Positions 1 through 36,318 of a DNA stretch of 64,000 bases are shown here, one piece after another. Location of the stretch: NCBI RefSeq assembly GCF_965641715.1, contig NZ_OZ282453.1; one strand, given 5' to 3'. The translations under genes and the position numbers were made by a program. The notes beneath the pieces were generated by a model that was given only the letters and a program-made list of their open reading frames with translations, ran no database searches and had not been told where the DNA came from. The stretch is from Escherichia coli (lineage in GTDB: Bacteria; Pseudomonadota; Gammaproteobacteria; Enterobacterales; Enterobacteriaceae). Position 1 is the stretch's first letter. Every line of letters starts with the position of its first letter.

Positions 1-2
1 CG

Positions 3-1179: not shown

Positions 1180-1193
1180 ATCGCAGGTAACAC

Positions 1194-2414: not shown

Positions 2415-2417
2415 AAA

Positions 2418-2924: not shown

Positions 2925-2935
2925 GGAACAGACGA

Positions 2936-3877
2936 ATGATTACTTTTGATCAGGCAACCGTTGACAGCTCTGGTGCCTTTCTCATCGGGGAGCTGGAGCG
3001 ACTCGACCAGACGCTGAACCTGCCACTGGTGGGGTACACCTGGAGCCGCGATATTCAACTGCGTGAAGACGTCTCCATCGCAGATGACATTTCCAGCTGG
3101 ACGAATACCAGCTTCGCCGCTGCGGGTACTGGCGCAAATCCGAATGGAAAAAACTGGGTAGGCAAAGACTCAACCGCTATTGCTGGCGTGAACGTGGATA
3201 TCGGCAAATCCGGTAACCCGCTGAACCTGTGGGGGATGGAACTTGGCTGGACGGTCATAGAATTGCAGGCTGCTCAGCAGGTCGGCCGCCCGATTGATAC
3301 GCAGAAGTATGACGGTATGCAACTGAAATGGCAGATGGATAACGATGAACAGGTATATGTTGGCGATTCAGCATTAAACCTGAAAGGCCTTGTTACCCTG
3401 GACGGCGTGCCTGTCAACAACGCTGCCAAAACGTGGGCAACCTCAACACCGGACGAAATCCGCGCAAGCATTAACCAGGTGCTGTCTGATGCGTGGGCCG
3501 CTTCTGGTTACTCTGTGGTTCCGCGTGATTTGCTGATCCCGCCTGAGCAGTTTGCTCTGTTGTCCAGCATTATCGTTTCATCTGCGGGTAACCAGTCCCT
3601 GTTGACATACCTTCAGACCAACACCATCAGCTATCACCAGAACGGTGTTCCGCTGAATATCCGCGCGGTTAAATGGCTGAAAGGCCGTGGTGTGGGGAAT
3701 AAGGATCGCATGGTTGCGTACACCAACGATAAAAAATACGTCCGCTACCCGCTGGTTCCGCTTCAGAGCGTGCCGGTGCAATATCGCGGTCTGTATCAGA
3801 TCGTCACTTACTACGGCAAGCTGGGTGCAGTCGAGCCAGTGTACAAAGAAACCATTTCGTACGTTGATGGCATTTAA
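2936..3877 (+). CDS. phage major capsid protein
   Basis: 313-aa ORF in the canonical capsid position with RBS GGAACAGACGAATG; size and composition typical of a major capsid protein. Confidence 0.5.
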   Translation: MITFDQATVDSSGAFLIGELERLDQTLNLPLVGYTWSRDIQLREDVSIADDISSWTNTSFAAAGTGANPNGKNWVGKDSTAIAGVNVDIGKSGNPLNLWGMELGWTVIELQAAQQVGRPIDTQKYDGMQLKWQMDNDEQVYVGDSALNLKGLVTLDGVPVNNAAKTWATSTPDEIRASINQVLSDAWAASGYSVVPRDLLIPPEQFALLSSIIVSSAGNQSLLTYLQTNTISYHQNGVPLNIRAVKWLKGRGVGNKDRMVAYTNDKKYVRYPLVPLQSVPVQYRGLYQIVTYYGKLGAVEPVYKETISYVDGI

Positions 3878-3918
3878 CAGCCATATGGCCCCCTGGCGGG
3901 GCCATTAAGGATGACCCG

Positions 3919-4140
3919 ATGGCAAAAAATAATGCAGTAATACACGTACATACCCCGTTTGTGCTCACGCTTCCCGACGGTTCGCGGCGCGAGTTTGTTA
4001 AAGGCCGTCATGCTGTGGAGGAAGACGTTGCCACGCACTGGTTCACTCGTGCGCACGCGGAAGTATCCGTTGGCAAAGCCACAGACGCGCGTAACGAGGT
4101 AAAAAATGCCAAAGAATCAAAGTCTGCCAGCGGTAAGTGA
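3919..4140 (+). CDS. hypothetical phage protein
   Basis: 73-aa ORF in the head-tail joining region. Confidence 0.3.
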
Positions 4141-4513
4141 TTTTCGCCGCGACTTCCCGCAGTTTGCTGACCCTGCCAAATATCCCGAAGCGCAAATCCA
4201 GTTTCGTCTGAATCTGGCCGATGAACTGCTGAGCGAAAACGTCACCAGCAAAAAGTTGTTTCCGTACTTTGCCGGATTGTTCGTTGCACACTACATGACG
4301 CTCTGGGCGGCAGACATCCGGGCGATGCTGGCTGGCGGGCCGGGCGGTTCAACCAATGGTGTTCAGTCCTCAAAGTCCGTGGATAAGGTAAGCGTCAGTT
4401 ATGACACCAGCGCGACGCTGAATCCTGATGCAGGTTTCTGGAATAACACCCGATATGGCGCTGAATTTTATCAGTTGATCACGATGTTCGGTGCAGGTGG
4501 TCGCCAGCTATGA
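4106..4513 (+). CDS. phage head-tail adaptor-like protein
   Basis: 135-aa ORF overlapping its neighbours, co-oriented in the head-tail joining block. Confidence 0.35.
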
Positions 4514-5064
4514 GTTTCAAAAGCGGTGTAACAACGAGGGTGGATAACGCTAAGGCCATTCTGGATGCGCTCAGGTCGTTAACCAAAAAAGATGTGCTGG
4601 TCGGCATCCCTTCGGAAGACAGCGAGCGGGATGATGTTCCGTTTGGTAATGCGGGCATCGGTTACCTCAACGAATACGGCTCACCAGAGCAGAACATCCC
4701 GCCACGACCTCACCTGGTCCCCGGCGTTAAATCGGCAGAAGAGCAGACGGTGCCGCAGCTCAAAGCCGCGGCGCAGGCTGCACTTGATGGTAATGCTGCG
4801 GGAGCAGAAAGCGCACTCAACCGTGCCGGAACACTGGCCGCTAATGGCGTCAGGCGTTACATGACCATTACCGGCTTTACGCCGCTTGCTGACAGTACTG
4901 TTGAAGCCCGGGCTCGTCGGGGGCGCAAGGGGGCAACACTGGAACTTGCCCGGCGTGCTGCTGGCGAATCTCCGGGAACCGAACTGGCGAAACCATTAAT
5001 TGATACCGGGCAATATCGCAGAGCTATTACCCATGTTGTGAGGGATAAAGATGCCGACTCTTGA
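4510..5064 (+). CDS. phage head-tail joining protein
   Basis: 184-aa ORF; start overlaps upstream stop (ATGA). Confidence 0.35.
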
Positions 5065-5440
5065 TGTAACAGATGTGCTTTTTGACCCCGATTTTTGCGA
5101 CTTCAATTTGTGGGTAACACGCCGTGTGCAAACGGTGGATGAGGACGGGATCGGCAGCGACAGCGAAGTTAAAAAGCAGTTTGCCGGAGTCGTAACTGTT
5201 GATCGCTCTCTGGAAAACCGTCGTATGCAGGCCGGGCAGGTAATCAGTGGTGCAATTCTGATTGTGACGACTGAGCGACTGACGCAGGGACAGACTGGCC
5301 GTGATGCCGATATCGTGACGTATCAGGGCCGTGATTATCGTGTGACTTTCGTCGACCCGTATACAGCGTATGGTGCCGGATTCGTTCAGGCGCATTGTGA
5401 GTTGCTGCCGTTTGATGGGGGAATTCCGGTTGAGCAATAA
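5051..5440 (+). CDS. phage head-tail joining protein
   Basis: 129-aa ORF in the same co-oriented block. Confidence 0.35.
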   Translation: MPTLDVTDVLFDPDFCDFNLWVTRRVQTVDEDGIGSDSEVKKQFAGVVTVDRSLENRRMQAGQVISGAILIVTTERLTQGQTGRDADIVTYQGRDYRVTFVDPYTAYGAGFVQAHCELLPFDGGIPVEQ

Positions 5441-5978
5441 CACCAGCACAGAGCGCGGATGGCTGATACCAACCAGTGGCGATCCGGATTATGACGAAGC
5501 GCTCGACAGGCTGTTAAGCCAGTGGATGCGTAACGTTTCCGGTCTGTCTGCCGGGATGGTTCGTCCGCGCTGGCAGAAAGAGCAACCGCCACTGCTACCG
5601 GCTGAAACGAACTGGTGTGCGTTTGGGGTTATCGGATGGTCAGGTGATGACAGTCCGGCATTCACCAGACAGACCGATGATGGCTCTCAGCTCTGGCGGC
5701 ATGAAACGATTGAGTGTATGGCTTCGTTTTATGGTCCGGCGGGGATGGTGTATGCGTTCCGGTTTCGTGACGGTATATCTGTACCGCAGAACAACGCAGC
5801 ACTGAATGCGCTGGGGCTGTCTCTTGGCGATTACACAGGTCTGACTCCCTTCCCTGAACTTATTAATCAGCAATGGGTCCGCCGCTACGATATGACGGTG
5901 CGTCTGCGCCGGAAGGTTGTGCGCGAGTACGGTATTAAATCGCTGGTGGAAGCACCAGTCATCTTTTTCGGAGATTAA
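5370..5978 (+). CDS. phage tail completion-like protein (start uncertain, possibly TTG at 5430)
   Basis: ORF directly upstream of the sheath-like gene; alternative TTG start with GGGGGAA RBS. Confidence 0.3.
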   Translation: MVPDSFRRIVSCCRLMGEFRLSNNTSTERGWLIPTSGDPDYDEALDRLLSQWMRNVSGLSAGMVRPRWQKEQPPLLPAETNWCAFGVIGWSGDDSPAFTRQTDDGSQLWRHETIECMASFYGPAGMVYAFRFRDGISVPQNNAALNALGLSLGDYTGLTPFPELINQQWVRRYDMTVRLRRKVVREYGIKSLVEAPVIFFGD

Positions 5979-5981
5979 GCT

Positions 5982-7127
5982 ATGGCACAGGGCTTGCCTG
6001 TATCAAACGTTGTTAATGTTGATGTGATCATGTCGCCGCGTGCAGCATCAGGGCGAAATTTTGGTGCATTACTCATTCTCGGCCCGTCCACAATCATTCC
6101 GGTAAGTGAGCGCATTCGCCGTTATTCTGCCGCGGAAGATATTGGAAAAGATTTTGGCGTGGAATCACCAGAATATAAGGCTGCGCAGGTGTTTTTCTCT
6201 CAATCAACGAAACCTCAGGAGGTTTTTGTTGGTCGTTGGGTGAAAACGAAGGGAGACAGCGAACAGGCCACGCCTGAGACGCTGGAGCAGGCTGTGAATG
6301 CCATGCTCGATTATACTTCATGGTATGGGCTGGGGATTGCAGACGATGAAGATATTCCGGATGCAGACTGGCTGAAAGTGGCTGCGGCGATCGAATCCTC
6401 TTCTGTAAGCCGTATTCTGGCGATTACGACAAGCGATGAGAAATGCCTGCAGACTGCATCCAGCGATGATTTGGCATCAAAACTGAAAACCGCCGGATAT
6501 TCACGCAGTTTTATTCAGTATTCATCGGGTAATAAATACGCTGCGTTATCTGCATTTGGCCGGGCATTCACGGTTAATTTCAATGGCAGTAATACCGCGA
6601 TTACGCTCAAGTTTAAGCAGGAGCCGGGTGTCGGGTATGAAACACTGACAGTCAGCCAGGCATCGGCACTTGATGCAAAAAACTGCAATGTGTTCGTGTA
6701 CTACCAGAATGATACAGCTATCCTCCAGCAGGGAGTGATGGCTAACGGCGATTTCTTTGATGAACGCCACGGCCTGGACTGGTTACAGAATTATGTGCAG
6801 ACCAACCTCTATAACCTGCTTTATACCAGCACCACGAAAGTTCCCCAGACTGAAGCCGGTATTACCCGACTGTTATCAAATGTAGAAAAATCACTGGATC
6901 AGGCCGTTCAGAATGGACTGATTGCTCCGGGCGTATGGAACGGTGGCGACCTTGGTCAGTTGTCATCAGGTGACACGCTGCCCAAAGGTTATTACGTATA
7001 CGCCCAGCCGCTGGATGAACAGGCACAATCAGAACGTGAAGCCCGTAAGGCTCCGGTGATTCAGGCTGCAATAAAACTTGCAGGCGCGGTTCATTACGCT
7101 GACGTACAGATTAACGTTGTTCGCTAA
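5982..7127 (+). CDS. phage tail sheath-like protein
   Basis: 381-aa ORF immediately before tube-like and chaperone genes; order sheath-tube-chaperone-tape measure. Confidence 0.5.
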
Positions 7128-7137
7128 GGGGAAGTGA

Positions 7138-7578
7138 ATGTCTACCTATTCTTTTATGGATGTCACTGCGACGCTGACCGGCCCGACCGGTTCGATTGAC
7201 CTCGGGTACGGTTCTGCAAGTTCTGAAGAGGGGATTGTGGTTGCGATGGGCGGTCCTAAAAACACCATGATCATCGGTGCTGATGGCGAAGTGATGCACA
7301 GTCTCCATGCAGATAAAAGCGGGACGATCACCGTTAACCTTCTGAAGACATCACCGACAAATAAAAAATTGTCGCTGGCGTATAACGCACAGAGCCAGTC
7401 TTCTGCCACATGGGGGAATAACGTTATTGTGATCCGAAACAAGGTCAGCGGCGACATCATCACGGCACGTAGTGTTGCGTTCCAGAAACAACCGGATAAT
7501 GCCAACGCTAAAACCGGTAATACGATGCCGTGGGTGTTTGACTGCGGCAAGATTGACCAGGTTCTCGGGGAGTTTTAA
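7138..7578 (+). CDS. phage tail tube-like protein
   Basis: 146-aa ORF between sheath-like gene and tail assembly chaperone. Confidence 0.5.
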   Translation: MSTYSFMDVTATLTGPTGSIDLGYGSASSEEGIVVAMGGPKNTMIIGADGEVMHSLHADKSGTITVNLLKTSPTNKKLSLAYNAQSQSSATWGNNVIVIRNKVSGDIITARSVAFQKQPDNANAKTGNTMPWVFDCGKIDQVLGEF

Positions 7579-7581
7579 TAC

Positions 7582-8034
7582 ATGGAATTCGAAATCAAAG
7601 GCGTGAAATATCGCGTGGCAAAACTCAGCGTTTTTGACCAGCTGAAAGTGACCCGCAAACTTCTGCCGGTACTGGCGGGAATGATGTCAGATTTCGGGAG
7701 CATTCGCTCCCTGTTGCCTGCTGATGGCAAAATCGACACCGTGAAATTCGATCAGTTGAAACCGGTATTTGAAACCCTGCTTCCGCGTATCGCTGAGGAA
7801 CTGTCTTCCCTGACTGAAGAAGACACCAACGCGATTATTCATCCGTGCCTGGCCGTAGTATCACGTAAGCACATGGACGGATGGACGCCGGTATTTAAAA
7901 GCGGTCAGCTGATGTTCGATGATATCGACCTGCTAACCATGCTGCAGCTGGTGGCGCGGGTGGTCGCCGATTCGCTGGGAAATTTTTTGCCCGTGAGCCC
8001 TACCAGCCCGACGCCGGGCCAGCTTCAGGGTTGA
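7582..8034 (+). CDS. phage tail assembly chaperone
   Basis: 150-aa acidic protein directly upstream of the tape-measure gene; contains slippery heptamer T TTT TTG near its 3' end. Confidence 0.5.
   Translation: MEFEIKGVKYRVAKLSVFDQLKVTRKLLPVLAGMMSDFGSIRSLLPADGKIDTVKFDQLKPVFETLLPRIAEELSSLTEEDTNAIIHPCLAVVSRKHMDGWTPVFKSGQLMFDDIDLLTMLQLVARVVADSLGNFLPVSPTSPTPGQLQG
7983..7989 (+). promoter_or_regulatory. putative -1 programmed ribosomal frameshift site (T TTT TTG)
   Basis: Heptamer identical to the one in the P2-like E gene at 59153..59159; the -1 frame is open from here to 8222. Confidence 0.45.
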
Positions 8035-8222
8035 CCCTCAACAGCCTACCAGACGGGCTGTCTTATCTCCTTGACCCGGTTGATGCCGGGTTAATCCCTT
8101 ATTACGCGCTGAAGGATGGATCAATCGATCTGTGCGATATCGCGCTGATGAATGACCACCTGGCCGTTAAGGCTGACAACCAGCGCCGTATAGAGAAATG
8201 GAGAGAGGATAATGAACGCTGA
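8031..8222 (+). CDS. frameshift extension of tail assembly chaperone (-1 frame)
   Basis: -1 frame relative to 7582..8034, open across the slippery site. Confidence 0.4.
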   Translation: MTLNSLPDGLSYLLDPVDAGLIPYYALKDGSIDLCDIALMNDHLAVKADNQRRIEKWREDNER

Positions 8223-9582
8223 GACTATTAAAGATTTCCTCGTCTCGCTTGGTTTCGATATCGACGAAGCTGGCGCGGAAAAGTTCGATTCAGTCCTGGC
8301 CGGCACGACCGCAAACGCTATCAAAATGGGGCTGGCCGTCGAAGGTGCCGCGCTTACCGTGGTGGCCTTCACGGCTAAGATCGCCTCCGGTCTGGATAAT
8401 CTCTACTGGGCGTCACAGCGCACTGGCGCGACGGTACAGGGGATTCAGTCTATTGGCTATGCGGTTTCCCAAGTGGGCGGCAGCGTAGACGCGGCGCGCT
8501 CCTCTCTGGAAAGCCTCTCCCGATTTGTGCGTAACAATCCCGGCGCGGAAGGCTTCCTGAATCGCCTGGGCGTACAGACCCGTGACGCCAGCGGTAACAT
8601 GCGTGACATGGCCGCTATCTTTACGGGTGTCGGCCAGAAGCTCAGCAGCATGCCGTACTACCGGGCTAACCAGTATGCGCAGATGCTGGGGATTGACGAA
8701 AACACCCTCATGGCGATGCGCCGGGGTGTGGGCGGTTTCTCCGGGCACTACAGCGCAATGGCGAAGGCTATCGGCTTTAATGCTGACGAGGCGGCCAGAA
8801 GCTCCAATAAGTTCATGACTTCTCTGCGCGAGTTCGGCGCGATGGCAGGCATGGCCCGTGACAAAATCGGCTCTAATCTTGCTGGTGGTCTGGCGGGTTC
8901 GCTGGACACGCTGCGCCGTCATATTCTGGATAATTTCCCGCGCATCGAGCAGACCCTGACGAAAGCCATAAAAGGCATTCTGGCGCTCGGGGACATCATC
9001 GGGCGGTTGTTCTTCCGGCTTATTGAGGGGACATCCAGCCTTATTACCTGGTGGCAATCGCTGGATAAGCAAACCCGGGAGCTGATCTCGCTGTTTGGCG
9101 CACTGACGATTGCGCTGCGCATTCTGAACAGTACGTTCTGGATGTCGCCGGTTGGCCTCATTACCGCGCTGGCGGCGGGGATTGCCCTCCTGTGGGAGGA
9201 CTATCAGACCTGGAAGGAAGGCGGCGACAGCCTGATTGACTGGGGCAAGTGGAAACCGGAGGTCGATGCCGCGCTGAAGATGGTTCGTGACCTTAAAACG
9301 ACCGTTAACGATCTGGCGAAAGCGCTGGCGAAACTACTCAATATTGACCCCAAATCATGGTCCCTGAAGTGGGATTTCAGCAACTTCATCGACCAGATGG
9401 GCGAATTCAGCAAAATGCTGAACATGATCGCCGACCTGCTCAACGCTATCAAAGATGGACGCTGGGCTGATGCCGTCAGCATCGGCAAACAGATACTTAA
9501 TCAGGGCAGCGAAAATCCGTCAGCGATGCCGATGGTTACAGACAGCGCTAACAGTACTGCCGACTGGATTAAAGAGCACTGG

Positions 9583-9593
9583 GGATTCGATCC
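9583..9593. repeat. IS186 target-site duplication, left copy (GGATTCGATCC)
   Basis: 11 bp identical to 10933..10943, directly flanking the IS inverted repeats. Confidence 0.7.
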
Positions 9594-10932
9594 CATAAGC
9601 GCTAACTTAAGGGTTGAACCATCTGAAGAATGCGACGCCTCGGTGCCTCGTTAAGACGATGCCTCGCGTTCTTCAATTGCGTTTTGTAGGCTGTCAGGGA
9701 TACTGTCCCACGAATGGCCACCTGTAAGCTCCAGATGACCATTTTTGTTATTCTCCACAACGAGTTAGTTCTTCTTTTCGGATCCGGCACTTCTGGGGGG
9801 GAAATCCAGCGATGGCTGGATTATGTCGTCAATTAAAAATGCGGCGAGTAGATTAGCAAATATCCACGCTTTCGCGAGTTCAGGTTCCTTTGCACGCAAA
9901 GCATCCAGGTGCAGCAAACTTTTGAGCCGCTTAAAAGCCAGTTCAATTTGCCATCGCAGACGGTAACAATCAGCCACTTGCTCTGCTGAATATTCATCTT
10001 CCGGTAATGATGTTAGCAATAGCACATGGCCCGCTGCTTCCAGCGTTTCCGCCTGAACTACTCGTCCTTTTCGACGATTCTCGCTGAGCAGTCGGGTTTT
10101 ACTGATTAATGCTTTTTCGGGAGGAAGTGATACGGCAATGAGACGTGCCGGAAAGGGAGCTCCGGCTTTTTTATTACCTGAATTGCCTATCATTACAGTG
10201 GTTTCACCGTTCTTACCGCAATCCAGCCCGCGCAGAAAACCCATCATGTCAAAGCGCATTCCTTCTGCAGTTAACCAGCGCAATCCTCGCCAGTGAACCC
10301 GGACGATATAATCAGCTTCTCCAAAAGCAAGTGAGCGGATACATTCGGGACGCGAACCGAATCCCCGGTCAGCAATGCGTATCTCGTCTGCCGTTTGCGC
10401 AAATCGGTCCAGCCGTTCAGCGTCTCTGCTGTCGGTTAGCTCAAAATCAGTGAACTGACAGGTATGAGGATCATATCCCATATGTAGTCGCCATTCAGCG
10501 CTGCCGCCCCCGGGCGCACTGATTGCTGTTCCATCGACAAGACGCAATCTCTTTCCGCTTGTACAACCCGTAACTGCGGCGCGTACAGCAAGTGTTTGTG
10601 CGGCAAGTATGCCAAACCAGTCGGCGGCATTCCGCAGCCGCTTCAGGAGAGCCACGTCAGATAATGTTGCAACGTCATGGAGCTGAGCCCATGCAGTGAC
10701 TTCACGTAATGACATCCCCCCGGGGCCGTAAGCCAGCCCCAGACGTAGCAGAGTTGCAGCATCACGAATTTCGCGGCGGCGGGTTAGAGCCCCGGCATTA
10801 CGTGCCGAAGTATCCAGTTCTTCGGGCTTACCAATATGGGCCAGAATTGCTGACCAGTTATCGTGAGAGTAATTCATCGGCACGTTAAATCATATCAGGC
10901 GTAATACCACAACCCTTAAGTTAGCGCTTATG
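9594..10932 (-). mobile_element. IS186 insertion sequence
   Basis: 23-bp perfect terminal inverted repeats CATAAGCGCTAACTTAAGGGTTG (9594..9616 and reverse complement 10910..10932) around a 372-aa IS4-family transposase. Confidence 0.85.
9765..10883 (-). CDS. insL: IS186 transposase
   Basis: 372-aa ORF beginning MPMNYSHDNWSAILAHIGKPEELD..., recognised as IS186 InsL. Confidence 0.8.
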   Translation of the reverse strand: MPMNYSHDNWSAILAHIGKPEELDTSARNAGALTRRREIRDAATLLRLGLAYGPGGMSLREVTAWAQLHDVATLSDVALLKRLRNAADWFGILAAQTLAVRAAVTGCTSGKRLRLVDGTAISAPGGGSAEWRLHMGYDPHTCQFTDFELTDSRDAERLDRFAQTADEIRIADRGFGSRPECIRSLAFGEADYIVRVHWRGLRWLTAEGMRFDMMGFLRGLDCGKNGETTVMIGNSGNKKAGAPFPARLIAVSLPPEKALISKTRLLSENRRKGRVVQAETLEAAGHVLLLTSLPEDEYSAEQVADCYRLRWQIELAFKRLKSLLHLDALRAKEPELAKAWIFANLLAAFLIDDIIQPSLDFPPRSAGSEKKN

Positions 10933-10943
10933 GGATTCGATCC
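10933..10943. repeat. IS186 target-site duplication, right copy
   Basis: Identical 11 bp to 9583..9593. Confidence 0.7.
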
Positions 10944-11549
10944 CCGCAGTGTGGGCCGGACGGTACGCGGCTGGTTTGGTGATGATGAGCCGGAACAACA
11001 TGCACAGGCTACGAAACGAGGAGAGCGGAATAACAATCCGGGAAACCTTAATTTTGCTGGTCAGGCGGGGGCTTCTCTTGAACACCCGGGCGGGCGATTT
11101 GCCAGATTTGAAACTGCCTTTGATGGATTACGGGCTCTTGCTCGTCAGTTAATGTTGTACGCCGGGCGAGGAATAAACAGTGTGGAAAAAATTATCTCTA
11201 CCTGGGCACCTGCCTCTGATAATAACAACACAACTGCGTATATCAGGGCTGTATCGCAACGACTGGGAGTGGATCCCCGGGCTGCCCTGAATATGAGCGA
11301 TCCGAAAACCATGTCAGCATTGATGAGCAGCATTATCCAGCATGAAAATGGAAGAAATATCTATTCTCGAGCGCTGATTAATAAGGCTGCCGTGGCGGGA
11401 ATTAGTGGCAAAATGACAGAGGTTAACCAGCAAAATACCTACCACATTTACGGTGGCGGAGATCCGCACGCTGTCGGTAATGAGGTTGCACGTCGGCAAC
11501 AGTCTGCAAATGCTCAGGTCATGCGAAGTAATCAGGTGAGGGTGGGTTA

Positions 11550-12137
11550 GTGGATATTCTCTCTACACTTTTTCATCAGCAGAGCAGAAAAATAGGAATG
11601 ATTGTTCCCAGTGTTGTTATTTCAGAGAAGCATACAGATATGCTTGAAATAACCGAGCATCCGGTAGAGGTCGGGGCTGCTGTCGCTGATCATGCCTATA
11701 AAAAACCGTCAGAAGTGGTGATGGAGGTTGGTTTCGCCGGTGGCGGCACATTGCTGGATTTTGCCAGTAACCTGACGGCTACCAGCCTGCTCGGCCTGAG
11801 TCCTCAGCAGACGTATCAGGAGCTACTGGATCTGCAGGAAAGCCGTATCCCCTTCGATGTGGTAACCGGTAAACGGCTGTACAGCAACATGTTGATCCGG
11901 GCGCTGGAAGTGACGACGGACAAGACAACCGAAAATGTCCTGTCCGCCGTCCTTACCCTGAGGGAGGTCCTTATCTCCCGGACACAGCAGATTACCGTCG
12001 CGGATAAAACCAACATGAAGGAAGGGGCCAGCACGTCGGCGGTACAGAATAGCGGCAACAAAACCACAAAGCCTCCAGATACTTCACTGCTGAAAAGCAT
12101 TACGGGTAACGTGGCGTCATTACTAGGAGGCGGCTAA
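11550..12137 (+). CDS. phage tail protein (possibly gpU-like)
   Basis: 195-aa ORF immediately after tape measure. Confidence 0.3.
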   Translation: MDILSTLFHQQSRKIGMIVPSVVISEKHTDMLEITEHPVEVGAAVADHAYKKPSEVVMEVGFAGGGTLLDFASNLTATSLLGLSPQQTYQELLDLQESRIPFDVVTGKRLYSNMLIRALEVTTDKTTENVLSAVLTLREVLISRTQQITVADKTNMKEGASTSAVQNSGNKTTKPPDTSLLKSITGNVASLLGGG

Positions 12138-12439
12138 TGACAATTCAGGAAATTCCGCTGACAGCGGACAACCAGCAGTTCAGCATCGTCCTGGGCGGTG
12201 TCACCTGGCGGATTAGCATCATATGGCGCGATCTGTACTGGATTATGGACCTGCAGAATGACAGAGGGGAGCCGGTAATCTCCGGTATTCCTCTCGTCAC
12301 TGGCGCTGATCTGCTGGCGCAGTACGCCTGTATGGGGCTTGGTTTTAAGCTGTTGGTGGTCTGCGATGACAACACACAGGATTATCCCACGAAAACTGAC
12401 CTGGGCAGTCGCAGCCATTTACTGGTATCAACGGAGTAA
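12137..12439 (+). CDS. phage tail protein (possibly gpX-like)
   Basis: 100-aa ORF translationally coupled to neighbours. Confidence 0.3.
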   Translation: MTIQEIPLTADNQQFSIVLGGVTWRISIIWRDLYWIMDLQNDRGEPVISGIPLVTGADLLAQYACMGLGFKLLVVCDDNTQDYPTKTDLGSRSHLLVSTE

Positions 12440-12441
12440 GC

Positions 12442-13503
12442 ATGTCACAGAACTGGATGAGACATTTCGAGCTGCAGCTTGTGGACGGGAACGGTCAGGG
12501 AATTGAGCTAAGTGATTTTAAAGTCACCTTTACGATCGACTGGTTCAACATCAGCAGTGCGTCCCGGGTAGGGACTATCAAAATTTATAACCTCTCGGCA
12601 GATACTGTGAACCGAATCACCGGGCAGGAGTTTTCGAAAGTGCGTCTGATTGCGGGTTACGACGGTATCGCGCCGGAGGTGTCGGCAAGCGACGTCGGGA
12701 CTGTGCGGGAAGTTGACGCGGCGGACGTGGGCCAGAGTGATGGCCGCAACTACGGACTAATTTTCAGCGGTGAAATTCGCTACTCGGTCACAGGAAAAGA
12801 CAGTCCGGTTGATTCCTACGTCCTGATTCAGGCAGCAGATACTGATCTGGCTTTTGCCACCAGTATAACCTCACAGACGCTGGCTGCCGGTTACACGGTC
12901 GCTGATGTGAACCGTGCGCTGATGAAAGACTTCGAAGCCAAAGGCGCGACCGAAGGCCTGACGCCTGAAATGCCTGCTACTGTATTCCCCCGGGGGCGGG
13001 TGCTCTTTGGCATGACGCGGCATCTAATGGATAACGTAGCCGGGCAATGTGGCGCAACATGGCAATTCGTGGACGGTCAGCGCCAGATGGTGGCGAATAA
13101 CGAATATGTTCACGAAGCGATTGTGCTCAACAGTGCTACCGGGCTTATTGGCATGCCGCAGCAGACCATCGGTAACGGCGTAAACGTCCGTGCGCTCATT
13201 AATCCGAACATCCGGGTTAACGGGCTCATTCAGCTGGATCAGGCTTCTGTATATCGCACCGCGTTGTCGAACAACGATATCGCTATGGCTGGTGGGCAGA
13301 TCACCGACCAGAACACGGACGGAAATATTACGCTCAGCGGCACCACATCACAGCCTGCCAGCATCGCAACGGATGGCGTTTATATTGTGCGCGGGATTAT
13401 GTACACTGGCGACACAAGGGGCCAGGTGTGGTACATGGATATGATGTGCGAAGCGCGTGGCGCGGCGGATCTGTATACGCAATCGGCTTTGCAAAGGGGA
13501 TGA
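12442..13503 (+). CDS. phage baseplate hub-like protein
   Basis: 353-aa ORF between tape measure-associated genes and baseplate genes. Confidence 0.4.
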   Translation: MSQNWMRHFELQLVDGNGQGIELSDFKVTFTIDWFNISSASRVGTIKIYNLSADTVNRITGQEFSKVRLIAGYDGIAPEVSASDVGTVREVDAADVGQSDGRNYGLIFSGEIRYSVTGKDSPVDSYVLIQAADTDLAFATSITSQTLAAGYTVADVNRALMKDFEAKGATEGLTPEMPATVFPRGRVLFGMTRHLMDNVAGQCGATWQFVDGQRQMVANNEYVHEAIVLNSATGLIGMPQQTIGNGVNVRALINPNIRVNGLIQLDQASVYRTALSNNDIAMAGGQITDQNTDGNITLSGTTSQPASIATDGVYIVRGIMYTGDTRGQVWYMDMMCEARGAADLYTQSALQRG

Positions 13504-13506
13504 GCA

Positions 13507-13848
13507 ATGAGGGGTATTATTTTTCTGTTAGCTGTCTTTTCTGCGTGCAGCGCGTGGGCGGATGGCTTCACGGTTAAATGCGGTGGCTACACTATGGTTG
13601 CAAACCAGGGCGAGTTATCGACAATCAACGGTGAAAGAGTTACCTCTCAAAAAATCACCGAACTGGGTACCAATGGTTTGAAAGTAGACATGGGGATTAT
13701 GCCTGCCAAAGACGGTAACAACTACGGCTTTGAATACATTCGTCGCCCTGGTACCGAAACGCGATTCCTGAATGTGCAACTGCTGCAGAACAGCATGGAC
13801 GCGCCGAAAATCATCGGGTCTTTCCCGTGTAAAAAGGTTAATCAGTAA
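13507..13848 (+). CDS. phage-encoded lipoprotein (possible exclusion protein)
   Basis: N-terminus MRGIIFLLAVFSACSAWA is a signal peptide with lipobox (FSAC); RBS AAGGGGA upstream. Confidence 0.5.
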   Translation: MRGIIFLLAVFSACSAWADGFTVKCGGYTMVANQGELSTINGERVTSQKITELGTNGLKVDMGIMPAKDGNNYGFEYIRRPGTETRFLNVQLLQNSMDAPKIIGSFPCKKVNQ

Positions 13849-13907
13849 AGCTATAATCCATTTCTGACATCAATTTCAGGCAGTTGATTCTGGGGTTAAG
13901 GATTATT

Positions 13908-14684
13908 ATGGCTACACCAGCTAAAGCATCCAGTAACTATGTTATCCAGTTCGGGGCGATGCTTGAAGAAAATGCTTCGATAGATGAGTTCACTTATCGT
14001 TACGTTTTACGCAATTATTCATCCAGCACTGAAGGCAACGATGTTAGCGCGGTTGGTTTTGCTTATGCTTTAAATGGTGAAGATGATCTAGCCTATGAAC
14101 ATTTTCATAAGCATCTGAAAATGGGCAACATCACTATTGCAAAGAATTTCGCTGCTTTCCTTTTCAAACGACATCACTACCGCCAGTTACATGAAATTAT
14201 TTATCAACTTGCTGATGCGTTTGGCGGGAAAATGTTGACTATGCTTGCTGCTGCGGAATCTTATCGGGTTGGTGACCTGGCGGCAATCCAGAAATACATG
14301 GAATGGCACTGTCGTTTACTGTCAGAAAACGATGACAAGTACGGAGCTGAAGCCTATATGCGTGAGCTTATCGATGGTGTTAAAGGATGTTACGAGGCAA
14401 AAGTTTGTACACCTGAGCAGTTTAGATTGCTTGGGGACATCACTCATTCGATCCTTGAAGAACGTAAACTTATTCCCGGTAGCTTGGGAATTTTCAGCTC
14501 TATGGGCGGTGATTATCTCGTGCAAGTGGAGAAAGCTACTCCGGAAGATATCGTTTTGATGAATTTTGATTTGGCTGAAAGGATATGTTCTGAGTCAAGG
14601 TTAGACGACTGTGAAATGACTGCTCGTTTCTCGGTTTTAAGGGAGTCCCATACGAAGGAAACTTATGACTATTCAGAGTTTTGA
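13908..14684 (+). CDS. hypothetical protein, partner of HEPN-like gene
   Basis: 258-aa ORF with RBS TAAGGA; AT-rich compared with flanking tail genes; 3' end overlaps next gene by 20 nt. Confidence 0.5.
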   Translation: MATPAKASSNYVIQFGAMLEENASIDEFTYRYVLRNYSSSTEGNDVSAVGFAYALNGEDDLAYEHFHKHLKMGNITIAKNFAAFLFKRHHYRQLHEIIYQLADAFGGKMLTMLAAAESYRVGDLAAIQKYMEWHCRLLSENDDKYGAEAYMRELIDGVKGCYEAKVCTPEQFRLLGDITHSILEERKLIPGSLGIFSSMGGDYLVQVEKATPEDIVLMNFDLAERICSESRLDDCEMTARFSVLRESHTKETYDYSEF

Positions 14685-15036
14685 TTTTTTGCGTTCAAGT
14701 GAACATTGTTTAACTCTGGACGAAGAAGTTGGTTATCGTAATGCCGTATCGCGAGCCTACTATGCTATGTTTCATCGTGCTGGCGAGGCTCTGAAGCATG
14801 TCCCCTCTGTAGAACATAATCACCATGCTAATTTAATCAACTACATGCAAGGTAGGATGGGCACACCTAAGGAAGAAATACCTCCTGCAAGATTAAAAAT
14901 ACTTGCATACGATCTCCGCCAAATGAGACAAGCGCGGAATGAAGCCGACTATCGCTTATCTGACTCCAAGATAAATGCTGACGTTGCCAAGGAATCATTA
15001 TTAACCGCGCAGCATTTTTTTAAACGGATTTCATAA
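14665..15036 (+). CDS. HEPN-domain-like protein
   Basis: 123-aa ORF with SRAYYAMFHRAGEAL helix resembling the HEPN fold; strong RBS GAAGGAAA. Confidence 0.5.
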   Translation: MTIQSFDFLRSSEHCLTLDEEVGYRNAVSRAYYAMFHRAGEALKHVPSVEHNHHANLINYMQGRMGTPKEEIPPARLKILAYDLRQMRQARNEADYRLSDSKINADVAKESLLTAQHFFKRIS

Positions 15037-15057
15037 AAAGTCACTATTTACCACGAA

Positions 15058-15079
15058 CCCGCCATCCGGCGGGTTTTTT
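15058..15079 (+). terminator. intrinsic terminator after HEPN cassette
   Basis: Hairpin CCCGCC-ATCC-GGCGGG followed by TTTTTT. Confidence 0.6.
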
Positions 15080-15098
15080 GCTTTCTGGAGCCTACTAA

Positions 15099-15851
15099 AT
15101 GGCAGTATCTGACCAGACCCGCAGCGGCGACCTTGCCGAAACATTCAAATCTGAACGGGAAACAACAAAGAACCAGATCCGTGTCGCCTTGCCTGGCATT
15201 ATTCAGTCATTCGATCCTGATGCGGTGACGGCAGTTGTGCAGCCTGCTATCCGTTCGGTTGAAAAGGATAATGACGGCAACCGCATTACCAAAAATTACC
15301 CATTGCTGGTGGATGTGCCAGTGGTATTCCCACGCGGCGGAGGATGTACGCTAACGTTCCCAGCTAAAGCCGGTGATGAATGTTTGGTGATTTTTGCCGA
15401 TCGTTGTATTGATTTCTGGTGGCAGAGTGGCGGGATACAGGAGCCGGTCGATGACAGAATGCATGATTTATCGGATGCGTTTTGTATTGTCGGTCCCCAG
15501 TCGCAGGCAAGGAAGATTAGCGGTATTAATACCAGTGCCACACAGTTGCGTAGTGACGACGGCAGCACCTATTTTGAGCTTAATCCTGATACCAGGAAAA
15601 TTAAAATTGTCGCTCCGGGTGGTCTTGATGTGGTTGCCCCTCTGGCTGATTTTTCTGAGAAAGTAACCATTCATGGCCTGTTAACCTGGATGGGGGGCAT
15701 GGTGGGGTCTGTTGTTTCTGGTGTGGCTTCAAAAATCACTGGTGCTGTTGAGTTTTTGGGTAGCGTGAAGGCTAACGGCAAGCTAATCGATGATACGCAC
15801 ACTCATGGTGGTGTTCAGCGCGGTGGAAGCAATACCGACGGAGTAAACTGA
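15099..15851 (+). CDS. phage baseplate spike/assembly protein (gpV-like)
   Basis: 250-aa ORF; position and size as in P2-type V-W-J-I order. Confidence 0.45.
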   Translation: MAVSDQTRSGDLAETFKSERETTKNQIRVALPGIIQSFDPDAVTAVVQPAIRSVEKDNDGNRITKNYPLLVDVPVVFPRGGGCTLTFPAKAGDECLVIFADRCIDFWWQSGGIQEPVDDRMHDLSDAFCIVGPQSQARKISGINTSATQLRSDDGSTYFELNPDTRKIKIVAPGGLDVVAPLADFSEKVTIHGLLTWMGGMVGSVVSGVASKITGAVEFLGSVKANGKLIDDTHTHGGVQRGGSNTDGVN

Positions 15852-16204
15852 TGCGATACAGACGTGAAGACGCCGATGGCGATTACACCTTTGGCAGCGG
15901 TGATGATACCTGGCTGATTAACTCACCGGAGGCCGTGGCGCAGGCGGTAAAAACGCGATTCGAATTGTGGTATGGGCAATGGTTTCTAGACACCACCGAA
16001 GGGACTCCGTGGATCCAGTCCGTACTCGGTAAGCAGAAGCCGGAAACCTACAACCTGGCGATCCGTAAGCGCATCCTCGAAACGCGGGGCGTTAAATCAA
16101 TCCTCTCTTTCAATACGACGGTGGATACCACGACCCGACGTGTCATGTTTTCCGCTGAAATCGACACTCTCTATGGAATAACGACTGTTACATCGGAGGC
16201 GTAA
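15851..16204 (+). CDS. phage baseplate wedge protein (gpW/gp25-like)
   Basis: 117-aa ORF coupled to neighbours. Confidence 0.45.
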   Translation: MRYRREDADGDYTFGSGDDTWLINSPEAVAQAVKTRFELWYGQWFLDTTEGTPWIQSVLGKQKPETYNLAIRKRILETRGVKSILSFNTTVDTTTRRVMFSAEIDTLYGITTVTSEA

Positions 16205-17403
16205 TGGCTCTGAACCTTGATTCTCTCGGTTTATCTGCAAAGGTAACCGCGGAGGGGATCAGTGCGCCTGATTATCAGACGATACTCAGCACCCTGATTA
16301 GCTATTTTCAGCAGATTTATGGCAGTGATGCCTACCTCGAACCGGACAGCAAAGACGGCCAGATGGTGGCTCTGATGGCGCTGGCGATTCATGATGCCAA
16401 TAATATGGCGATAACTGTCTACAACTGTTTTTCACCGGCAACCGGCTATGGGGCTGCACTCACCAGTAACGTGAAAATAAATGGTATTTCACGTAAAGGC
16501 GCGACGAACTCTACGGTTGATTTGCTTCTTACAGGAACTGCCGGAACAACCATCATTAATGGCAGCGTGAAAGACAGTAATAATGTGATATGGCGTTTGC
16601 CTGCTTCAGTGGTGGTCGGCGTGGATGGTACAGTGATGGCGACCGCAACATGTTCCGTCAGTGGTGCAGTGGCGGCGCTGGCTGGAACTATCACTGAAAT
16701 TAATACGCCAACCCGTGGCTGGGTTTCGGTAACTAATCCTGCTGCGGCTACTGTTGGCTCTCCGGCAGAAACTGATGCTGAGTTACGTATCCGCCAGTCG
16801 CAAAGTGTTGCATTGCCATCAATAACCCCATTTGAAGCACTGGATGGTGCTGTTTCTAATGTTACCGGTGTAACCCGCCACAAACTCTATGAAAACGATA
16901 CTGGTTCGGAGGACGGTAACGGGTTACCGCCACACTCTGTTGCTGTAATTGTGGATGGCGGTGATGTGACGGATATTGCTCAGGCTATCAGAGGGAATAA
17001 AGGCCAGGGGACAGCCACTCACGGTACAACATCCGTTACGGTTCCGGATAAATACGGCAATCCCCATGTAATCAAATTCTCGCGTTCCAGTGATGTACCT
17101 GTTTATGCCCGGATTAAATTAAAAGTTTTTACGGGTTATACCTCACAGATAGGGCAGCAGATCCAGCAGGCTATTTCCGACTATATCAATAGTCTGATGA
17201 TTGGTGATTCGGTCCTTTTAAGTCGCATTTACTCACCGGCGAATCTTGGCGTGGTGAGTGGCGGGAATGCACGCTATTACGATATTCAGGAACTGACGAT
17301 TGGGAAATCCCAGGGGACTTTGTCGTCATCAAACATTGATATCAGATATAACGAATCTGCGTCCTGTACCCCGGAAAATATCGTTATAACGGTGGAGTCA
17401 TGA
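16204..17403 (+). CDS. phage baseplate protein (gpJ-like)
   Basis: 399-aa ORF following the W-like gene. Confidence 0.45.
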   Translation: MALNLDSLGLSAKVTAEGISAPDYQTILSTLISYFQQIYGSDAYLEPDSKDGQMVALMALAIHDANNMAITVYNCFSPATGYGAALTSNVKINGISRKGATNSTVDLLLTGTAGTTIINGSVKDSNNVIWRLPASVVVGVDGTVMATATCSVSGAVAALAGTITEINTPTRGWVSVTNPAAATVGSPAETDAELRIRQSQSVALPSITPFEALDGAVSNVTGVTRHKLYENDTGSEDGNGLPPHSVAVIVDGGDVTDIAQAIRGNKGQGTATHGTTSVTVPDKYGNPHVIKFSRSSDVPVYARIKLKVFTGYTSQIGQQIQQAISDYINSLMIGDSVLLSRIYSPANLGVVSGGNARYYDIQELTIGKSQGTLSSSNIDIRYNESASCTPENIVITVES

Positions 17404-18080
17404 GCAAATACACCGAACTAATCACAAACTACCACGCCTCCAAACCTAAATTTCTTTCACATGTTGATCTGATGACCCGGCCGCTTATTGATGTTGCGGC
17501 TGCCACCAGAGGGCTGATTACTGCATTTGATATCGACTCTGCGGTTGGTGTGCAACTTGACATTCTGGGATTGTGGATCGGACGTAGCCGTGTTGTCAGC
17601 CAGCCTATTTCAGGTGTCTATTTCAGCTGGGATACCGACGGGATTGGATATGATCAGGGGGTATGGCAGGGACCATACGATCCTGATTCAGGATACATGT
17701 ATCTCAGCGATGAAACTTATCGTGTCATTCTTAAAGCGAAGACTGCGATTAATAACTGGGACGGACGGAATGATTCGCTTCCGGCAATTCTTGACGCGGC
17801 AACAGCAGGATCCGGGCTGCGAATGCAGATAGTCGATAACCAGGACATGACGATATCGGTCAGGGTCTTTCCTGATACTGATATTTCAGATGTATCGCGT
17901 GAGTTAATTGCGGCAATTAAACAGGGGTATCTCACAGTAAAAGCCGCCGGGGTATGGGCGGGTGGCATTGAAACACCTTCGGTGGAAACCCCATCGGAAG
18001 GCTCAAAATTTTTTGGTTTTGATATGGATAACGAATTCATCAGTGGTTTTGATGTAGGGGCATGGGGAGTATTACTCTGA
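17400..18080 (+). CDS. phage tail protein (gpI-like)
   Basis: 226-aa ORF preceding the tail fibre gene. Confidence 0.4.
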
Positions 18081-18871
18081 TGGCGAAAAATGACTTTAAA
18101 GCGTTTGCAACTGATCGGAATGCCAATGTTATGTCGCAGGAGGAATGGGAAGCGTTGCCTGCGCTTTTATCCGGATTTACAGCAGGGAAAGCATCCAGTG
18201 CGCAAGTCAATAAGGTTATTCGGCAGGCCAGCTTTATTGCTGCAGCTCTGGCCCAGTTTGTAAGTGACAAAACGCAACGGGATGTGCTTGATAATGGTGA
18301 TCTGCCCGGTTTTGTTGAATTGCTGGGATCGGGGTTTGCTGTTGAATACCTGAGCCGCAAGAATCCGTTTGGCGATATCAAATCGGATGGCACGGTGAAA
18401 ACGGCTCTCGAAAACCTTGGTTTGGGAGAAGCGGCAAAACGGAATGTGGGCAACGGGGAAAACCAAATCCCTGATATGTCTTTCTGGACGGTTACTGGTG
18501 GCAATGGAAATTTTGTGATTCGTCAACCTGACGGGCTAATCATTCAGATGGTTACTGTAAGTATAAGCGGTCCAGTGGCGATGAATGGAATGACTGATAA
18601 TGCTTATGCCATTACAGGTTCTAATAAGTCTTATATTGCCACAGCCACATTGCCCTTTGTATTTCCTAATAAGGTGCTGGGCGTTATCCCTCTGGTATCA
18701 ACAACAGCTTATGGTGGTGTATCCAGTAATATTACAGGTTCATACGCGACGGCGGTTTGTTCTTTTGCCGCTGTCAGGGGGAATAATACGATTGTGTTCA
18801 AAGTCGACAAACCACTGAATGCAGCCTTTCCTTCAGATACCAGCGTCTCAGCGTTAATCATTGGACGGTAA
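18062..18871 (+). CDS. phage tail fibre protein (constant N-terminal part fused to variable C-terminal part in current orientation)
   Basis: Start may be ATG at 18083; recombination-site-encoded ENLGLGE motif at 18412..18431 splits constant and variable parts. Confidence 0.5.
18412..18431. repeat. gix-like inversion crossover site, left (AAACCTTGGTTTGGGAGAAG)
   Basis: 19/20 inverted repeat of 20337..20356; AAACC-TT-GGTTT half-site structure as in Gin/Hin/Pin sites; lies inside the fibre ORF. Confidence 0.55.
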
Positions 18872-18873
18872 GA

Positions 18874-19317
18874 ATGAACTCAGTATTCTTTTCACCCGGA
18901 AGTAAAAGTTTTTATCTGCAAGAATTGTTTCCAGAATATGAGAATGCGGGAACGCTTCCTGATGATGTTATTGAAATTACCAGAGAAACATATGAGCAAT
19001 TTCTTGGGCTGCATCCAGAAGGGAAAGAAATTGGCGCTGACAGTTCAGGACGGCCAGTATGGATTAATTCCCCACCCCCTTCAAAAGAGGATGAGGTGTT
19101 GACGGCTGAAATGAAAAAAATATCTTTGGTTTCAGAAGTCAATACCTACATCAATACCCATCAGTGGCCTGGCAAAGCGGCGATTGGTCGTCTGAAAGGT
19201 GACGAGCTGGAACAATATAATTTGTGGCTGGATTATCTGGACGCACTGGAGCTGGTCGATACTTCCGGTGCGCCAGATATTGAATGGCCTACGCCTCCGG
19301 CAGTTCAGGCCAGATGA
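18874..19317 (+). CDS. phage tail fibre assembly protein
   Basis: 147-aa ORF; C-terminus resembles that of the convergent Tfa-like ORF. Confidence 0.55.
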   Translation: MNSVFFSPGSKSFYLQELFPEYENAGTLPDDVIEITRETYEQFLGLHPEGKEIGADSSGRPVWINSPPPSKEDEVLTAEMKKISLVSEVNTYINTHQWPGKAAIGRLKGDELEQYNLWLDYLDALELVDTSGAPDIEWPTPPAVQAR

Positions 19318-19891
19318 CATCCGGCGCGGTGCTGGTATCTGTTGCAGTCACCGCGTCAATGTAATCCAGCACAGCGTTAAGCCGGGTTGTTTCTGCCTGC
19401 GTCAGTTTCCGTCCGGCCTGTAATTTCAGTTGAATCAGACTAATGGAAGCCATTGCTGCATCAATCAGTGACTGGCGCTGTGCTTCTGCCGCTTCTACTG
19501 CGGCACCGTGTTGTGCCTCAGTATCTGTCATCCATTTTTCACCATCCCATTTATCGTATGGCGTTAACGGGGCGATAGTGGTTGTATTTTCGGGATAGTC
19601 GCCTGGTGCTGTGATTTCTTTGGCATCTCCCGTTTCGGTGTTATAGACGATTTCACCTCGATGGTCTGACACATATTCCCATGATTTTAAATCCACAGAA
19701 CGGCAAATTGTATAACCAGCCTTATATGTACCAGGAGCGTCTAAACAGGAATATGCAGGGATACCGACACCAATGGCAAGATATTCATTTGAAGTGGAAA
19801 TATATTCCCGTGTTTCGCCATCATAGTTATAGACGGTAATATTTCCCGCCTTTGTAGCAATAAACTCGCTATTTAATACAGCGTTATCCAT
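19289..19891 (-). CDS. phage tail fibre assembly protein (alternative, on opposite strand)
   Basis: 200-aa ORF with Tfa-like C-terminus ...LNAVLDYIDAVTATDTSTAPDVIWPELP; convergent with 18874..19317. Confidence 0.6.
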   Translation of the reverse strand: MDNAVLNSEFIATKAGNITVYNYDGETREYISTSNEYLAIGVGIPAYSCLDAPGTYKAGYTICRSVDLKSWEYVSDHRGEIVYNTETGDAKEITAPGDYPENTTTIAPLTPYDKWDGEKWMTDTEAQHGAAVEAAEAQRQSLIDAAMASISLIQLKLQAGRKLTQAETTRLNAVLDYIDAVTATDTSTAPDVIWPELPEA

Positions 19892-20336
19892 TATGCAGCC
19901 CTCACGATATAGTTAAATGCGATATTCCGTGGGCGAGTATCGGCAGGAACGACATACATTTCACCAATTGCCCGCTCATTAGAGTTGTTCAGCAATAGGC
20001 TTGAGCCATTACTGTCATGACCCGTAATTAAGATATCATTGGACAAAATAAGTGAGCCCGTACCTGCAGGAATACCATAAATTCCCATATCAAATTTAAT
20101 ATAACCAACACGCGCGCTCTGTGCAGACATAACGCTGCGACCAGTATCTACTGAACGACCGTCATCCCAGCCACGAATAAACTCACCGCGTAAATCAGGC
20201 AATTTATTTGTCGGATAAGCCTTTGCCAGTTCCGGGTATTCTTCAGCAGAAAAAGCCGCACCATTGCATTTCAGCCAGCCTGTTGGCGGAGTGGCTGAAG
20301 GCCACGGAACAGGGACACCAACAGGTAATGCCGAAC
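19891..20336 (-). CDS. alternative tail fibre C-terminal segment with tail-collar-like motif
   Basis: Contains ...LPDLRGEFIRGWDDG... collar-type motif; reading frame runs out of the right gix-like site, so it would be expressed only after inversion. Confidence 0.5.
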
Positions 20337-20356
20337 CTTCTCCCAAACCAACGTTT
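20337..20356. repeat. gix-like inversion crossover site, right
   Basis: Reverse complement matches left site 19/20; 62 bp upstream of the invertase start. Confidence 0.55.
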
Positions 20357-20417
20357 ATGAAAATGCAGAAATAACAAGCAAATGGCATCATTCCTGCTTT
20401 TGTCAGGGGGGGGGACC

Positions 20418-20546
20418 ATGCTTATTGGCTACGTACGCGTATCAACAAATGACCAGAATACCGATCTACAACGTAATGCGTTGAACTGTGCAGGATGCGA
20501 GCTGATTTTTGAAGACAAGATAGGCGGCACAAAGTCCGAGACCTAG
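20418..20546 (+). pseudogene. truncated DNA invertase (Gin/Pin/Hin family), N-terminal 42 codons only
   Basis: MLIGYVRVSTNDQNTDLQRNALNCAGCELIFEDKIGGTKSET then stop; near-identical to N-terminus of intact invertase at 62702..63289. Confidence 0.7.
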
Positions 20547-36249: not shown

Positions 36250-36255
36250 GTGATA

Positions 36256-36285
36256 CCCCCATAGCTTTCGGGCTATGGGGTTTTT
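36256..36285 (+). terminator. intrinsic hairpin/attenuator after fimbrial major subunit gene
   Basis: CCCCCATAGC-TTTCGG-GCTATGGGG followed by TTTTT. Confidence 0.5.
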
Positions 36286-36318
36286 AAATGGAATTCGCGC
36301 AAATTATAATAATTACGG

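Follow-up and report, generated by a model that had tools for sequence, protein, structure and literature searches.

The exchange of tail-fibre ends by DNA inversion is known from the G segment of phage Mu with its invertase Gin, the C segment of P1 with Cin, and the P segment of the e14 element of Escherichia coli K-12 with PinE. In Mu and P1, the constant part of the fibre lies outside the invertible segment, two C-termini with their chaperones lie inside it, and a Fis-dependent serine invertase acts on 26-bp sites of the form AAACC-NN-GGTTT. The inversion of the e14 P segment, the interchangeability of Gin, Pin, Cin and Hin, which complement one another, and the action of PinQ in trans are all known already, and the mechanism as such is textbook knowledge. 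Here we describe a locus of this kind in a stretch of 64,000 nucleotides (nt) of E. coli DNA (assembly GCF_965641715.1, contig NZ_OZ282453.1), which is called the window in what follows and is numbered from its first letter. This locus is a P segment of the e14 type and thus belongs to the DNA invertase family Gin/Hin/Pin/Cin, and the pin gene beside it is reduced to a stub.

The explanation that accounts best for the observations, and that we hold with considerable confidence, is that of a two-state host-range switch with a dead pin gene that can still be flipped by an invertase of the Gin/Pin family made elsewhere in the cell, the candidate here being an intact Gin orthologue in a P2-like prophage at the other end of the window. 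Two precedents, PinQ of the Qin prophage acting on the e14 P segment and Fin of Fels-2, which reportedly acts on hix, resemble this arrangement in that the invertase of one prophage flips the segment of another element. They differ from it in that the targets there have a working invertase of their own, whereas the target in the window would rely wholly on a foreign enzyme. It is this orphan status of the cassette, together with its spread, that is mildly interesting.

An e14-type P segment beside a truncated pin gene

A repeat finder returned a 20-nt inverted repeat at 18412-18431 and 20337-20356, the arms of which are 95% complementary (19 of 20 nt identical). Written in the 26-bp format of the family, the left crossover site, pixL, lies at 18405-18430 and reads CTCTCGAAAACC-TT-GGTTTGGGAGAA, with its core TT at 18417-18418, while the right site, pixR, lies at 20338-20363 and reads TTTTCATAAACG-TT-GGTTTGGGAGAA on the reverse complement, its core appearing as AA at 20350-20351 on the plus strand. 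The locus therefore has two inverted 26-bp sites, each made of 12-bp half-sites around a 2-bp core, which match each other at 21 of 26 positions. Productive inversion by serine invertases requires matching central dinucleotides, and those of pixL and pixR are identical (TT/TT) in inverted register. A search of the window for the site pattern AAACCNNGGTTTGGGAGAA, in which up to 3 mismatches were allowed, gave 4 matches against 0.11 expected, a number that none of 100 shuffled sequences reached; the 4 matches are pixL (on both strands), pixR and a third site near 63.35 kb. Both 26-bp sites agree in every base with the pix sites of K-12 e14 and also with those of the strains UTI89 and TL20, of the phage record vB_EcoM-606R2 and of every other related locus compared; the repeat core published for e14, TTGGTTTGGGAGAAGG, agrees with that of the window sites as well (PMC12529663). 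That the repeat might be a chance match or an assembly artefact was considered and rejected, the sites being identical in six independent records.

The sites lie inside a fibre gene. The tail-fibre open reading frame (ORF) at 18062-18871 on the plus strand encodes 269 amino acids (aa), of which the first ~120 are encoded to the left of the segment. Its true start is likely the ATG at 18080, which overlaps the stop of the upstream DUF2612 gene, because RefSeq homologues are annotated from the equivalent position. The constant N-terminal part (Sc, 18062-18417, plus strand) is matched by PHROG tail-fibre families over residues 1-125. Fused to it at present is a variable C-terminus (18419-18871, plus strand) with a Pfam Gp53-like_C match (E 8.5e-4) and a match to phrog_12714 (E 1.7e-47), followed by its assembly chaperone of 147 aa (18874-19317, plus strand; phrog_188, E 1.8e-55), the homologues of which are annotated as tail fiber assembly protein. 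The alternative set is encoded on the minus strand and consists of a TfaE-like chaperone of 200 aa (19289-19891; phrog_105, E 1.1e-96), 87.6% identical in nucleotides to the 3' end of K-12 tfaP and tfaE, and of a fibre C-terminus with a tail-collar domain and no start of its own (19891-20349; Pfam Collar PF07484, E 4.9e-15; phrog_523, E 4.4e-65). Each C-terminus is thus followed by its own chaperone, and the two sets converge, the chaperone genes overlapping by 29 nt. PHROGs and Pfam gave these assignments, and an NCBIfam search of the fibre and chaperone proteins found no matches. Inversion of 18419-20349 in silico, that is, of a segment of 1.93 kb, yields an uninterrupted, in-frame fibre of 271 aa in which the Gp53-like C-terminus is exchanged for the Collar one, with the TfaE-like gene directly next to it. 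Reading across the two crossover sites gives the peptides NLGLGE and NVGLGE.

To the right of pixR follows the pin pseudogene (20418-20546, plus strand; phrog_8275, E 1.6e-28), 42 codons and a stop, which encodes MLIGYVRVSTNDQNTDLQRNALNCAGCELIFEDKIGGTKSET, that is, 41 codons homologous to PinE and then a threonine. Nucleotide similarity to K-12 pinE stops after AAGTCCGA at ~20539, which leaves 41 of 184 pinE codons. The stub keeps the catalytic serine of YVRVSTNDQ, but helix E, which serves dimerisation, the DNA-binding domain and the larger part of the catalytic domain are gone; the pin gene of this prophage is dead, and the stub cannot encode an enzyme. With no intact serine invertase adjoining the segment, the locus is an orphan, invertase-less member of its family, and in homologues RefSeq labels the same stub 'recombinase family protein, incomplete'. 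The sequence that replaces the rest of pin (20540-20700) is ~94% identical in all stub-bearing loci, whatever the cargo behind it, and contains a GC-rich hairpin at 20596-20619. Upstream of the stub, a run of nine G at 20406-20414 stands in place of the GGGAGAT ribosome-binding region; this tract counts nine G in the window and eight in TL20, which sets apart two prophages that otherwise hardly differ, and such length variation between near-identical prophages is consistent with a hypermutable homopolymer before a dead gene.

Judged by these sequences, the locus stands nearest, among known systems, to the P segment of e14, and it resembles the Mu G segment in general architecture only. With e14 the locus shares the 26-bp sites, the gene order stfP-tfaP-tfaE-stfE-pinE and the same NLGLGE across the site; the stretch from the tfaP 3' end through tfaE is 88% identical in nucleotides, and the site-proximal end of the alternative fibre part (Sv'), the right site and the 5' end of pin are 94% identical. 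It departs from e14 in that PinE of K-12 is intact with 184 aa whereas pin in the window is cut after codon 41, in that e14 resides at icd and the host prophage of the window is a different backbone at argW, in that the variable part expressed in the window is Gp53-like and not StfP-like, and in the length of the segment, for which the literature gives 1.8 kb in e14. From Mu the locus differs in its crossover core, which is TT here while a gix-type site elsewhere in the window has TC/GA, in that Mu has an intact and adjacent invertase, and in that the fibre and chaperone sequences of the window are of the e14 set.

An earlier note on this DNA, written from the letters alone, had anticipated much of this anatomy: the repeat finder and the 26-bp alignment agree with its reading of the inverted repeats as sites of the Gin/Hin/Pin type, the layout with one variable part and chaperone on the plus strand and their alternatives on the minus strand is borne out by the ORFs, PHROGs, Pfam and the in-silico inversion, and both the site-encoded N(L/V)GLGE peptides and the adjacent 42-codon invertase stub were found where it placed them. 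Its description of the cassette as Mu G-segment-like holds for the architecture of the family and needs amending as to kinship, the nearest relative being the e14 P segment with identical pix sites and 88-94% identity in tfaE and the 5' end of pin.

Both orientations among stub-bearing relatives

The junction of the stub with its new neighbouring sequence (window 20440-20700) is present in 302 of 5,426 complete E. coli genomes. When orientations were counted with two 601-nt queries, in which the stub is joined to one or the other segment end, 67 stub-bearing genomes had the orientation of the window and 79 the opposite one.

Two comparisons place inversions after the loss of pin. In TL20 the argW prophage is the same one, down to the stub and the cargo, and its segment has the opposite orientation. 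Apart from an insertion sequence (IS) in the window, positions 1-18431 are 99.99% identical to TL20 (2 mismatches in 17 kb), and the two are again virtually identical in the stretch that starts at the right site and takes in the stub, the two cargo genes, intS and argW. After in-silico inversion, the Gp53-type part is ~100% identical to that of TL20, and most of its chaperone gene is nearly free of mismatches. Since the prophages of the window and of TL20 share both the truncation and the cargo, the flip that separates them came, by this comparison, after pin had died. The second comparison concerns a sister locus in a prophage integrated at ssrA, in which GN06489, SF-166 and UTI89 all carry the pin stub. 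Between GN06489 and SF-166/UTI89 the left flank is 100% identical over 4,282 nt and the right flank 99.98% over 6,364 nt, while the 1,939-nt segment between them is 99.9% identical but inverted, the strand switching exactly within the 20-nt repeats. Inversion after truncation is seen in this prophage lineage and in the sister loci alike.

Inversion in living cultures has been recorded for the ssrA locus as well. An inversion 'at 2.9 Mb' in UTI89 was detected and confirmed by polymerase chain reaction (PCR) in wild-type cultures (Russell et al., mSphere 2019; PMC6458436, Fig. S1, Table S2). We mapped three primers of that study on the UTI89 locus, at 6474-6493 (plus strand), 8172-8191 (minus strand) and ~10036-10056 (minus strand), which places them outside to the left of, inside and outside to the right of the segment between pix sites 7312-7337 and 9239-9264. 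The segment bracketed by these primers adjoins the same 42-codon stub, and the paper itself does not remark that the invertase beside the 2.9-Mb inversion is a stub (PMC6458436). The UTI89 cassette is the same as that of the window, 94-95% identical and inverted relative to it, with the same stub junction and the same two sites. It differs in its surroundings, as it lies in the ssrA-integrated prophage and has DUF262 cargo.

A candidate invertase in trans and the predicted enhancer

The window holds one full-length candidate for the missing activity, at the very place where the earlier note had seen an intact invertase. The serine DNA invertase gene at 62702-63289 (minus strand), in a P2-like prophage, encodes a Gin orthologue that aligns over residues 1-183 to the Mu Gin structure sequences (PDB 4m6f/3uj3) with E ~1e-100, and that has the catalytic domain, the active-site serine in YVRVSTNDQ and the C-terminal helix-turn-helix domain. 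It is 78% identical to PinE without gaps and 98% identical (180 of 183 residues) to the recombinase of the P2-like prophage of UTI89. Its own site is close by: a gix-type crossover site at 63344-63369, TTATCTAAAACC-TC-GGTTTACAGGAA with a TC/GA core, lies 55 bp upstream of its GTG start. The P2-like prophage region (window 55115-63623) is 95.7% identical to the 0.9-Mb prophage of UTI89, in which the intact invertase lies at 0.919 Mb. In that prophage the block from the sheath gene to gpU is opposite to D/ogr and to the fibre and baseplate genes, and the invertase follows directly after gpU; this arrangement could reflect a larger rearrangement. UTI89 has the same pair of elements as the window, the stub cassette and the companion P2-like prophage with its 98% identical invertase, and flips both segments.

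From this parallel with UTI89, and from the interchangeability within the invertase family, we infer that the Gin orthologue at 62702-63289 likely drives the flip of the stub cassette in trans. Such trans action between prophages has been observed for PinQ of Qin, which flips the P segment of e14 (Kirigo et al., 2025; PMC12529663). The two prophages of the window should at the same time be insulated from recombination of their switches with each other, because the overlaps must match and the pix core is TT where the gix-type core is TC; recombination between a pix and the gix-type site would otherwise invert or delete ~43 kb of chromosome.

Besides crossover sites, a foreign invertase would need an enhancer, as wild-type invertases are inactive without the Fis-bound enhancer, which in the case of Hin is an element of 65 bp situated ~100 bp from the invertase-proximal hix site (PMC3798978). 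From the centre of pixR to the breakpoint in pin, 189 bp have been retained, enough for such an element at such a distance, and a Fis-dependent recombinational enhancer is predicted by position at 20439-20502, inside the stub. By this analogy with Hin, the stub likely, though not provenly, retains the Fis enhancer. The stub and the Gin orthologue gene share exact runs of 20 nt (gene nt 22-41) and 11 nt (70-80), and synonymous conservation between pinE and the Gin orthologue reaches 0.75-0.89 over codons 1-15 against a gene mean of 0.47, a signal that is unspecific given a second peak at codons 103-120.

In the mechanism that we propose, transcription and translation would enter the segment from the constant fibre part, and the segment between the pix sites would supply either the Gp53-like or the tail-collar C-terminus, each with its own chaperone. 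An old replacement event would have cut pin after codon 41 and brought in the short shared spacer, with variable cargo genes beyond it. The cis elements surviving this event would be both crossover sites with their matching TT cores and probably, within the first ~120 nt of pin, a Fis enhancer, and owing to them a Gin/Pin-family invertase from elsewhere in the cell could still flip the segment, the obvious candidate being the Gin orthologue that the P2-like prophage encodes at 62.7 kb. More tentatively, the pin stub may be kept for its cis-acting Fis enhancer instead of being mere debris, in which case pixL, the segment, pixR, the enhancer stub and the spacer would form a self-contained, invertase-less cassette that has been grafted by recombination onto several backbones (argW, ssrA) beside a hotspot of defence-type cargo. 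If this were true, the phase variation of one prophage's tail-fibre or surface protein would require the Gin that a P2-like prophage makes in the same cell.

Host prophage, alternative readings and meaning

The element that carries the cassette is a myovirus-type prophage integrated at the tRNA-Arg(CCT) gene argW (24801-24875), beside intS. Its baseplate genes are 97% identical to those of Escherichia phage vB_EcoM-606R2; a search of the phage collection found no full-length match to the prophage, vB_EcoM-606R2 and its relatives being the closest backbone, with the 97% holding over the baseplate genes. The vB_EcoM-606R2 record has an independent, longer truncation of pin (10251-10565, 104 codons) and its segment is oriented opposite to that of the window; since the record includes flanking host genes, it represents a predicted prophage rather than the genome of a packaged phage. 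An IS4-family insertion of 1.34 kb (9595-10931; 372-aa transposase, minus strand) splits the tape-measure/lytic-transglycosylase gene, which is intact in TL20, and because of this the prophage is probably defective in the present genome. Between the pin stub and intS (20721-23147, minus strand) lie cargo genes for a 447-aa HExxH protein and a 200-aa protein, for which PADLOC and Pfam gave only weak HExxH/Lit-like (Lit / PD-Lambda-2_B / M48) and ZorB-like matches; the TL20 annotation has an IS3 fragment between the two genes. Elsewhere in E. coli, a gene for a DUF262 protein or for an HNH endonuclease follows this stub and spacer, which suggests that the region after the stub junction is a cargo hotspot.

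These surroundings bear on what the switch is for. It could be that the cassette no longer serves as a host-range switch of virions and has been adopted by the host, for instance for a phase-variable surface or anti-adsorption protein like StfE2 of e14. The probable defect of the prophage would fit such an adoption, as would the position of the stub cassette beside defence-type cargo in many genomes and the finding that P-segment inversion of e14 in K-12 gives rise to a chimeric protein that blocks T2 adsorption (PMC12529663). TL20, however, has the same prophage without the IS, so that the defect is recent, and we consider host adoption unlikely. As it concerns function and not the mechanism of inversion, it would in any case be compatible with a segment flipped in trans.

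A second alternative accepts the switch and denies its motion: the segment would be frozen in this strain, and the two orientations would be relics of inversions that preceded the truncation, the stub or whole segments having later spread between prophages by homologous recombination. The cassette is indeed mobile by recombination, as it sits on different fibre N-termini and backbones; similarity between the window and UTI89 begins ~60 bp to the left of pixL and stops at 20700. Within the window, the TfaE/collar half (19068-20349) is a different allele from that of TL20, 85-94% identical where the other half is ~100% identical, and was by this contrast imported by recombination. The edges of the divergent patch coincide with the crossover site and the conserved 3' ends of the chaperone genes, and a search for a donor of the patch (19050-20349) in complete E. 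coli genomes found none above ~97% identity. A frozen segment would also agree with K-12, where a strain without pinE stays locked (PMC12529663). Against such an account, TL20 and the window are near-identical on both sides, including stub, cargo and the Gp53-type half, and nevertheless have opposite orientations; the flip is the sole difference between GN06489 and SF-166; and both orientations occur in UTI89 cultures by PCR (PMC6458436). We therefore regard a frozen segment as quite improbable. The earlier note had expected the segment to be frozen unless an invertase is supplied in trans, and the need for an invertase in trans stands; between the two outcomes the evidence favours a segment flipped in trans over a frozen one, because relatives that share the stub differ by a clean inversion, because the two orientations are about equally common and because of the PCR results in UTI89. 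The note had also named two findings that would speak against it, namely that only one orientation is ever found even with the intact invertase present and that the repeats vanish upon realignment; relatives show both orientations, and the repeats were confirmed.

Inversion without any serine invertase, by RecA-dependent homologous recombination between the 20-bp inverted repeats, could be invoked given that no intact invertase adjoins the segment and that the repeats are identical at 19 of 20 nt, but it strikes us as very improbable indeed, since efficient exchange by RecA calls for homology of no less than 20 bp and perhaps more, the repeats coincide exactly with the working pix sites of e14, and the stub-bearing genomes examined in detail all have a Gin- or pin-type gene (UTI89, the window and, with a second pin-like match, TL20).

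Several points must be set against a P segment with a dead pin gene that is flipped by a Gin/Pin-family enzyme from elsewhere in the cell. Deletion of pinE in K-12 leaves the P segment locked despite native-level chromosomal pinQ (PMC12529663), from which it follows that activity in trans depends on the enzyme and its expression and is not automatic. The assemblies of sequence type 95 (ST95) are all in one orientation, which may point to slow or biased switching. The genome may encode further invertases beyond the limits of the window, and the dependence on the Gin orthologue is presumptive; likewise, flipping in this strain itself is deduced from its relatives. The assignment of the enhancer is positional, and codons 103-120 are synonymously conserved too. 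Finally, given the probable defect of the prophage, the switch may be without consequence for virions in this strain.

Three further observations concern the surroundings of the cassette. Among the baseplate genes, at 13884-15036, a 266-aa ORF is followed by a 123-aa ORF (a HEPN domain protein in the TL20 annotation); the pair looks like a moron or toxin-type insert, and PADLOC and NCBIfam found no matches for these ORFs. In the chromosomal flank, yfdC, mlaA, fadL and fadIJ are E. coli-like, with 97-99% identity. A fimbrial (yfc-like) operon at 35647-39764 is ~76% identical to that of TL20, compared with ~97% for the neighbouring chromosome, and thus represents a divergent allele.

Taken together, the comparison of this orphan cassette with its relatives has consequences for how such loci are read. 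The truncated allele is common, at ~5.6% of complete E. coli genomes, and a 'recombinase pseudogene' annotated beside tail-fibre genes should not be taken to mean that the switch is locked; between close relatives, assemblies may disagree at this locus through flipping alone. For the biology of prophages it would mean that their switches can outlive their own enzyme and come to depend on another prophage in the same cell.

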